Positions 3,877 through 3,993 of a stretch of 5,984 bases of DNA are shown here, in pieces (the stretch's first letter is position 1; each line of letters starts with the position of its first letter). A model generated the notes under the pieces. That model was not told where the DNA came from. It did no database searches and worked only from the letters and a program-made list of their open reading frames with translations. The position numbers and the translations under genes were made by a program. Origin of the DNA: a virus (lineage: Duplodnaviria; Heunggongvirae; Uroviricota; Caudoviricetes); IMG/VR virus record IMGVR_UViG_2563366825_000002; one strand, given 5' to 3'.

Positions 3877-3906
3877 TTGACAACGTCGCGTATCCGGGAT
3901 TATATT
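3877..3906 (+). promoter_or_regulatory. Near-consensus sigma70 promoter (-35 TTGACA, 18-bp spacer, -10 TATATT)
   Basis: Perfect -35 hexamer TTGACA at 3877..3882 and TATATT at 3901..3906 (5/6 to TATAAT). Predicted transcription start near 3913. The ORF-track start at 3877 is the TTG of this -35 hexamer. Confidence 0.5.
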
Positions 3907-3912
3907 CTCCGC

Positions 3913-3993
3913 ACGCCAGCAAAATCTGGCGTCGGGATTGAGACCCCGGATATTCAACCGCGACAGACACACGCCGCGAGCGTGTTTTTTATT
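3913..3993 (+). ncRNA. Candidate short structured transcript (about 80 nt) or attenuating leader between the promoter and terminator
   Basis: Between the predicted start (about 3913) and the terminator: hairpin 1 at 3913..3932 (ACGCCAG-CAAAAT-CTGGCGT), hairpin 2 at 3933..3948 (CGGG-ATTGAGAC-CCCG), then the terminator hairpin plus T-run at 3969..3993. No convincing SD or start codon inside. Identity unknown. Confidence 0.25.
3969..3993 (+). terminator. Rho-independent terminator (6-bp GC-rich stem, 5-nt loop, T-tract)
   Basis: ACACGC (3969..3974), loop CGCGA, GCGTGT (3980..3985), followed by TTTTTATT (3986..3993). Confidence 0.55.

Follow-up and report, generated by a model that had tools for sequence, protein, structure and literature searches.

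The C4 antisense RNA of the immI region in phages P1 and P7 represses ant by pairing at its ribosome-binding site, according to the summaries in PMC12197685 and PMC7313666. A second described system is the small RNA IsrK of Gifsy-1. The short IsrK RNA is a stable species that, in trans, activates translation of the antirepressor gene anrP by ~139-fold through pairing with the orf45/C4 region (PMC4825925). Transcription of the antirepressor starts at the isrK promoter and reads through the terminator, and the RNA STnc1160 is processed from the read-through transcript (PMC4825925). In the same study, orf45 was found to be conserved in nucleotide sequence and not in amino-acid sequence, and activation of the antirepressor was ascribed to orf45 translation and translational coupling, not to C4 (PMC4825925).

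The window analyzed here is a stretch of 5,984 nucleotides from a virus of the Caudoviricetes (IMG/VR record IMGVR_UViG_2563366825_000002). A preliminary description of its sequence reported a near-consensus promoter followed by a short structured RNA with an intrinsic terminator, which was interpreted as a phage-encoded small RNA or as a terminator-containing leader gating the downstream operon; an Rfam scan and a covariation analysis were named there as ways to check this. It is very likely that positions 3877-3990 are an intact gene for an IsrK-family small RNA (sRNA), the first part of a three-part module that occurs in many temperate phages, orphaned by a 442-bp deletion, and that the open reading frame (ORF) 3877-4389 is an artefact. 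The copy in the window is biologically ordinary, and the family-wide by-product of its analysis is of some use.

Results

An IsrK-family small RNA gene

The promoter, both hairpins and the terminator lie where the preliminary description had placed them (Table 1), and the promoter matches the consensus at 11 of 12 positions in a consensus scan of the window. The absence of a credible start codon also held up, in that 3907-3998 contains neither an ATG nor a Shine-Dalgarno-like motif. The predicted transcription start, A3913, corresponds to the +1 of Gifsy-1 IsrK. The minimum-free-energy fold of 3913-3990 (-24.4 kcal/mol) is the Rfam isrK consensus structure, with a linker of 20 nt between hairpin 2 and the terminator, whose stem (3969-3985, -7.1 kcal/mol) precedes a T5 tract at 3986-3990. 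The thermodynamic stability of this RNA is unexceptional (z = -1.5 against shuffles) and alone proves nothing, and in a consensus scan of the region promoter-like and terminator-like sites were equally frequent in shuffled sequence, so that the significance of the element must rest on homology.

In a whole-window Rfam scan, 3913-3990 matched isrK (RF01394; gathering threshold 50 bits) over model positions 1-77 of 77, with 73.6 bits and E=7e-15. Because of this covariance-model match and the covariation in homologues described below, the element is beyond chance, and the full-length match together with the consensus fold makes it a member of a curated and experimentally studied sRNA family; the element is thus already known. 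The segment 3900-3952 was also matched by c4-a1b1 (RF03163, "a1, b1 targets of C4 antisense RNA") with 46.3 bits, against a gathering threshold of 46.7; homologous elements in Sakai (50.5 bits) and Gifsy-1 (48.1 bits) pass this threshold, and the two Rfam families describe the same element. Clan CL00128 does not include isrK. The interpretation as a phage-encoded small RNA with its own promoter and intrinsic terminator is accordingly supported by the isrK match and by homologue covariation, and the annotation of the region should read isrK/c4-a1b1 ncRNA. Hfq binding is stated for isrK in the Rfam family description, and the RNA in the window has a terminator hairpin and a U-tail.

In many homologous loci, PisrK of Gifsy-1 among them, a TTGAC(A/G)-N18-TATATT promoter precedes hairpin 1 by the same distance. 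We infer the promoter and terminator of the window copy from sequence and conservation, and the sRNA is probably still transcribed into an RNA of ~78 nt. Two observations concern the promoter spacer. The motif CGGGATT occurs both there (3895-3901) and in hairpin 2 (3933-3939), and a spacer motif TCCGGG(G/A), directly 5' of the -10 hexamer, is kept across many loci and may be a candidate regulator binding site.

Table 1. Coordinates of features in the window and, where marked, in the closest intact relative (L001, E. coli SCU-104)
Feature	Position	Strand	Details
Mutator-family (PF00872) IS transposase ORF	985-2193	+	Pfam
ORF	2204-2896	minus	in replaced segment 868-3119
RelE (PF06296) toxin and HTH_3 antitoxin pair	3125-3872	minus	Pfam
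Putative sigma-70-type promoter	3877..3906	+	-35 TTGACA 3877-3882; 18-nt spacer; -10 TATATT 3901-3906
IsrK-family sRNA (a1b1 element of a C4-type antirepressor control module)	3913..3990	+	~78 nt
Hairpin 1	3913..3932	+	7-bp stem; conserved loop CAAAAU; -10.1 kcal/mol
Hairpin 2	3933..3948	+	CGGG/CCCG stem, only 4 bp; 8-nt loop; -5.0 kcal/mol
Specificity loop b1	3937-3944	+	AUUGAGAC; presented by the hairpin-2 stem
Single-stranded linker with a1	3946..3960	+	CCGGAUAUUCAACCG; complementarity to the C4 a' loop
Putative intrinsic terminator	3969..3990	+	stem ACACGC/GCGUGU; loop CGCGA; U5
Deletion junction 4020|4021	4016..4021		442 bp of intact relatives missing
Antirepressor 3' remnant	4021..4389	+	ORF6N-family; 122 codons and stop
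C4 antisense RNA	L001 5217-5301		RF01695, 70.6 bits
b2	L001, after C4		AUUGAGAC
a2	L001		AUCAACCGG; overlaps GGAGG (ribosome-binding site)
Antirepressor gene	L001 5355-6032		PF10543 ORF6N at residues 13-98

Intact relatives carry a three-part module

The closest intact relative, L001, is identical to the window in its promoter and isrK element. Its order is a RelE toxin gene (minus strand), promoter and isrK, C4, b2, a2 with the ribosome-binding site, and an ORF6N antirepressor gene. Rfam found the order isrK, C4, antirepressor also in the P1-like phage D6 (icd + ant), in the nin region of VT2-Sakai, in phi346 and in Gifsy-1, and in the intact relatives (E. coli prophages, Stx phages, D6 and Gifsy-1) C4 and an antirepressor gene always lie 3' of the element. 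The first downstream genes in these loci encode antirepressor types (Bro-N, ORF6N, Rha) or are small leader ORFs. The second suggestion of the preliminary description, a terminator-containing leader, therefore holds in the intact relatives, where the element is the leader of the antirepressor operon, and this matches the dual role described for IsrK (PMC4825925).

Related sequence is present in ~790 of 5,426 complete E. coli genomes and in 223-275 phage records. The locus itself is the integrase-proximal region of a 933W/Stx-phage-like prophage, and its element is 100% identical to copies in a functional context. A viral contig (L160) holds two isrK-C4-antirepressor modules, at 3959-4048 and 7221-7310, with the same b1 loop (ATTGGCGT) and different a1 linkers; cross-talk between modules in one phage or cell is possible. 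The nin-region module of VT2-Sakai lies at L244 2523-2708. Furthermore, phi346 (L002) carries an ALIL pseudoknot (RF01497, 121.5 bits) on the minus strand at 854-970, spanning the overlap of two hypothetical-protein ORFs (38-928 and 925-1251), and this pseudoknot is absent from the window.

The sRNA, C4 and the antirepressor leader co-vary

Homologues were collected by a pattern scan of viral contigs, which yielded 68 distinct full loci. The search pattern fixed the hairpin-1 loop and the hairpin-2 stem, so both are uninformative on variation. For the structure test, membership was decided independently, by whether b' (the reverse complement of the hairpin-2 loop 7-mer) lies downstream, which gave 63 distinct sequences. 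A pattern scan of genome contigs was rejected as a source of homologues for being too permissive, with nearly all hits being chance matches in unrelated phyla according to hairpin-1 pairing counts.

The covariation analysis favored the structured RNA. Across these 63 homologues the arms of hairpin 1 are compensated by double changes in 6/6 free pairs, 98% of cells are paired compared with 24-53% when the 3' partner is slid, and the covariation score was reached by none of 500 shuffles. The hairpin-2 stem is invariant in this set, but since it was fixed by the search pattern this carries no information. The terminator is present in all but three of the aligned homologues (L096, L188 and L221 have no T-run). 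The hairpin-1 loop GCAAAAUC (window 3919-3926) is conserved in the Rfam isrK and c4-a1b1 consensus, and the complement GATTTTG of this loop was found within 500 nt downstream in 0/67 intact loci.

The b' sequence lies ~150 nt downstream in 63/68 loci and b2, a second direct copy of b1, ~32 nt beyond b' in 61/68, as against 1.2% (b') and 1.7% (b2) in non-cognate controls. The longest exact complement between a1 and the a' loop of its own C4 averages 6.7 nt (4.1 for non-cognate pairs), and that between a2 in the ribosome-binding region and its own a' loop averages 7.8 nt (4.6). Mean duplex energies for cognate and non-cognate pairs are -35.2 and -25.1 kcal/mol for sRNA:C4, and -29.2 and -21.2 kcal/mol for C4:leader. 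Thus a1/b1, a'/b' and a2/b2 co-vary as parts of one module, with 13 different b loops and 33 different a' loops in the sample. For the window copy, the complementarity of a1/b1 to the cognate C4 a'/b' holds with the otherwise identical L001, in addition to the family-wide covariation. RNAduplex runs of the whole sRNA against 80-nt window tiles did not discriminate, because the best background tile scored about as well as the cognate C4, and they were replaced by k-mer counts and by cognate versus non-cognate duplexes of the a/b segments.

Apart from the window, most loci in which b1 and b' do not match exactly are recombinants with C4 still present; in L076 the downstream region is a different one and contains nothing C4-like. 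In three loci (L238, L144 and L133) the b1 loop mismatches b'/b2 of the C4 and leader behind it, in L205 b2 differs from b', and in L163 C4 is truncated at its 3' end; these mosaic modules suggest that the sRNA and C4 parts have recombined. At 5768-5776 (+), inside a gene homologous to the L001 gene for a DUF1627-domain protein, GGTCTCAAT complements the b1 loop perfectly over 9 nt, and it is not significant, with seven such 9-mers observed in the window and ~3 expected.

A 442-bp deletion orphaned the sRNA gene

Alignment to L001 shows what the window has lost. Positions 3701-4020 correspond to L001 4902-5221 and positions 4021-4600 to L001 5664-6243, whereas L001 5222-5663, which comprises C4, b2, a2, the ribosome-binding site and antirepressor codons 1-103 including the whole ORF6N domain, is missing. 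Each end of the missing segment has GTGGG, an imperfect short repeat. Of C4, the window retains just the first 5 nt (4016-4020), and the Rfam scan of the window found no C4 (RF01695) match at E<=1. Among the 68 distinct loci, outright deletion of C4 is confined to the window. As a consequence of the deletion the sRNA gene is orphaned and has no target in cis, and the gating of a downstream operon that the preliminary description had envisaged does not apply in the window, because with C4, a2/b2, the ribosome-binding site and codons 1-103 gone nothing is left to gate. Just 3' of the antirepressor remnant, at 4401-4430 (+), there is a terminator-like hairpin (ACCCCGACATCCCGTCGGGGT and a T-rich tail); the equivalent segment of Gifsy-1 is the sRNA IsrJ (100 bits), and the window has no isrJ match.

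Could the orphan have been kept for action in trans? It would then bind the C4 of co-resident or incoming phages with the same specificity (b' GUCUCAA, a' CGGUUG/GUUGAU), and if this were true it would be a free-standing anti-immunity RNA that derepresses the antirepressors of other phages and shifts the lysis-lysogeny decision. We consider this unlikely. The promoter (11/12) and terminator are intact and the element is identical to the functional-context copies, IsrK acts in trans in Gifsy-1, several related copies are common in E. coli genomes that have the locus (a median of 2 places and a maximum of 6), and the L160 contig has two modules with the same b1. In addition, the duplex predicted between the window sRNA and the L001 C4 (-38.1 kcal/mol) is stronger than that of C4 with the leader (-27.4 kcal/mol). 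However, the cognate C4 is absent from the window, the prophage is decaying (IS insertion, replaced segments) and retention may reflect a recent deletion, and none of the best-ranked matches from 5,426 complete E. coli genomes had the junction as contiguous sequence, which points to a private and recent event and not to a state under selection.

That the element is solely a cis-acting terminator leader, an attenuator with no function as a free RNA, appears quite improbable. Such a role would agree with the transcription of the antirepressor by terminator read-through in intact relatives (PMC4825925) and with the three of 63 aligned homologues that lack a T-run. Nevertheless, the short IsrK RNA is stable and active in trans, a1/b1 co-vary with C4 and not with the terminator or an antiterminator alternative, and the downstream gene in the window is a non-translatable remnant.

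The deletion also accounts for the long ORF. The antirepressor remnant at 4021-4389 has no ORF6N domain, ribosome-binding site or start codon, and because its frame is open upstream through the sRNA gene to the TTG of the -35 hexamer, it appears as an annotated long ORF, in which 48 codons of sRNA DNA are joined in frame to the C-terminal remnant. The preliminary description had noted that the start of this ORF is the -35 hexamer itself; the TTG of TTGACA at 3877 is indeed its first codon, and the ORF is not credible. A real gene for a 170-aa protein is scarcely believable here: the frame is open for 170 codons, but its TTG start is the -35 hexamer with no Shine-Dalgarno-like motif, codons 1-48 overlie an RNA whose structure covaries, codons 49-170 come from the C-terminal part of an ORF6N antirepressor, lack its domain and were joined on by the deletion, and the ORF has no Pfam match. 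Read from its sequence, ORF 3877-4389 is a deletion artefact, and its annotation should read pseudogene remnant of an ORF6N antirepressor.

The toxin-antitoxin pair is unrelated cargo in a decaying prophage

The toxin ORF upstream starts on the minus strand at either 3872 or 3809, close to the -35 hexamer of the sRNA at 3877. The true start is probably the ATG at 3807-3809 and not 3872, because the Pfam domain begins at residue 22 and the RefSeq homologue in L001 has 123 aa. The preliminary description had placed the sRNA gene divergent from and adjacent to the toxin-antitoxin promoter, and the adjacency and divergence of the genes stand, while the consensus scan revealed no toxin-antitoxin promoter. 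The antisense or regulatory link to this cargo that it had considered possible is a most improbable reading, with adjacency and divergent orientation as the only points in its favor: the RelE/HTH pair lies upstream in only 2/88 homologous loci, other phages are homologous from the promoter onwards and have different cargo upstream of it, there is no overlap between the transcripts, and k-mer counts put complementarity to the toxin-antitoxin mRNA at the level of chance. The RelE/HTH pair is swappable, unrelated cargo.

The prophage is degraded or mosaic, with a Mutator-family IS transposase and a replaced segment at ~868-3119. This segment (868-3119), which carries the transposase gene and a gene for a DUF4145 protein, replaces the BRO-N protein and HigA genes of L001, and ORF 599-1075 appears interrupted.

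Published Gifsy-1 mutations fall in b1 and in C4

In Gifsy-1 (L245, NC_010392), the minus-strand segment 34131-34316 contains an isrK match of 79.3 bits overlapping the c4-a1b1 match (48.1 bits, above threshold). A C4 match of 69 bits fills the orf45/STnc1160 interval, just upstream of anrP (STM2616). When the published mutations are placed by numbering from the first isrK base, G28 and G31 fall in the b1 loop, C159 and C162 in the C4 b' loop, and G173 in the C4 3' strand. The experiments comprised the compensatory mutant pairs G28/C162 and G31/C159 and the complementary pair C18U/G173A (PMC4825925). Since G28 and G31 lie in b1 and C159 and C162 in b', the published compensatory mutants are b1:b' pairs. 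The 139-fold effect in trans, the processing of STnc1160 and the nucleotide-only conservation of orf45 all fit an RNA gene.

Other published data do not fall into place as readily. In cis, the mutations G28A and G31A lead to higher basal translation of anrP, and co-expression of STnc1160 makes IsrK toxicity stronger (PMC4825925). A pure C4-titration model explains neither of these, and it also leaves the orf45 translational-coupling data unexplained.

Two other candidates were set aside. Locus L234 is not a Gifsy-1-like copy, since its best phage matches are Pseudomonas and Aeromonas phages. The "microRNA-size" RNA 24B_1 of Stx phage Phi24B, for which the antirepressor gene d_ant has been named as the target, comes from a different region, between lom and vb_24B_43.

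Discussion

The architecture of the intact relatives and the published experiments suggest how such a module may work. Its promoter would give rise to a short terminated RNA and a long read-through transcript, out of which C4 may be cut. The a' and b' loops of C4 would pair with a2/b2 at the antirepressor ribosome-binding site and prevent translation, a step that in the present family is supported by covariation. The short RNA has these target sequences too, as b1 in the loop of hairpin 2 and as a1 in its linker, and would pair with the C4 region; in trans it would switch antirepressor translation on, as has been shown for Gifsy-1 IsrK, presumably by competing with a2/b2 for C4 and so acting as an anti-antisense RNA. 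The a and b sequences vary between phages and would make up a specificity code. The window copy is most simply a relic in a decaying prophage, and its present-day function is conjecture because its partners in cis are gone.

On a wider reading, IsrK-type sRNAs would represent the a1b1 part of C4 immunity modules of the P1 type, with orf45/STnc1160 of Gifsy-1 being the C4 RNA, and together they may constitute a widespread combinatorial a x b RNA specificity code for antirepressor control, with at least 13 b and 33 a' loops in our sample. A statement unifying IsrK with the C4 module was not found in the searchable literature. The IsrK study draws a comparison with P4 seqA/CI, and the terms "bacteriophage P1", "phage P1", "immI", "icd", "Citron" and "Heinrich" are absent from its text (PMC4825925); later papers list isrK and c4 side by side, unconnected. 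With IsrK, c4-a1b1 and C4 as one module, the compensatory mutants as b1:b' pairs and the variable a/b sites as a specificity code, the models for P1 and Gifsy-1 could be compared and tested directly, and a unification at the family level is of some use to phage-RNA specialists.

Among known systems, Gifsy-1 IsrK (RF01394; Hershko-Shalev et al. 2016, PMC4825925) shares with the window the three-hairpin architecture, the promoter type and spacing, a nearly identical sequence of hairpin 1 and terminator, and a full-length covariance-model match. Like the intact E. coli relatives, it is located upstream of a C4-like interval and an antirepressor gene. In contrast, its b1 loop is AUUGGCGU compared with AUUGAGAC in the window and the a1 linker differs, so that the window represents another specificity allele. 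Gifsy-1 also keeps the C4/"orf45" interval and the antirepressor start, both of which the window has lost, and its isrK lies next to Q, whereas the element in the window is integrase-proximal in a 933W-like prophage.

The C4/immI system of P1/P7 (RF03163 and RF01695, clan CL00128; Citron and Schuster 1990, cited in PMC7313666 and PMC12197685) resembles the locus in other respects. Hairpins 1 and 2 of the window match the whole c4-a1b1 model, at a score 0.4 bits under the gathering threshold; the intact relatives, including D6, have the order a1b1, C4, a2/b2, antirepressor; and, as in P1/P7 heteroimmunity, a and b sequences set the specificity. Unlike in P1/P7, a1b1 in the window is followed by its own intrinsic terminator and would thereby be releasable as a separate sRNA, the host phages are lambdoid and not P1-like, and the window lacks C4 and a2/b2.

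More distant parallels exist as well. The P4 seqA/CI RNA/seqC system, the comparison chosen by the IsrK authors (PMC4825925), likewise involves a processed antisense RNA between complementary sites on one transcript in prophage immunity; P4 CI, however, acts by premature transcription termination of replication genes, and the Rfam scan of the window gave no match to the P4 immunity RNA. The anti-sRNAs or sponges AgvB and AsxR of EHEC (PMC12197685) are also short phage RNAs that mimic an mRNA target site and bind a regulatory RNA, but they target the core-genome sRNAs GcvB and FnrS and have no sequence relation to this element, whose partner is the phage's own C4.
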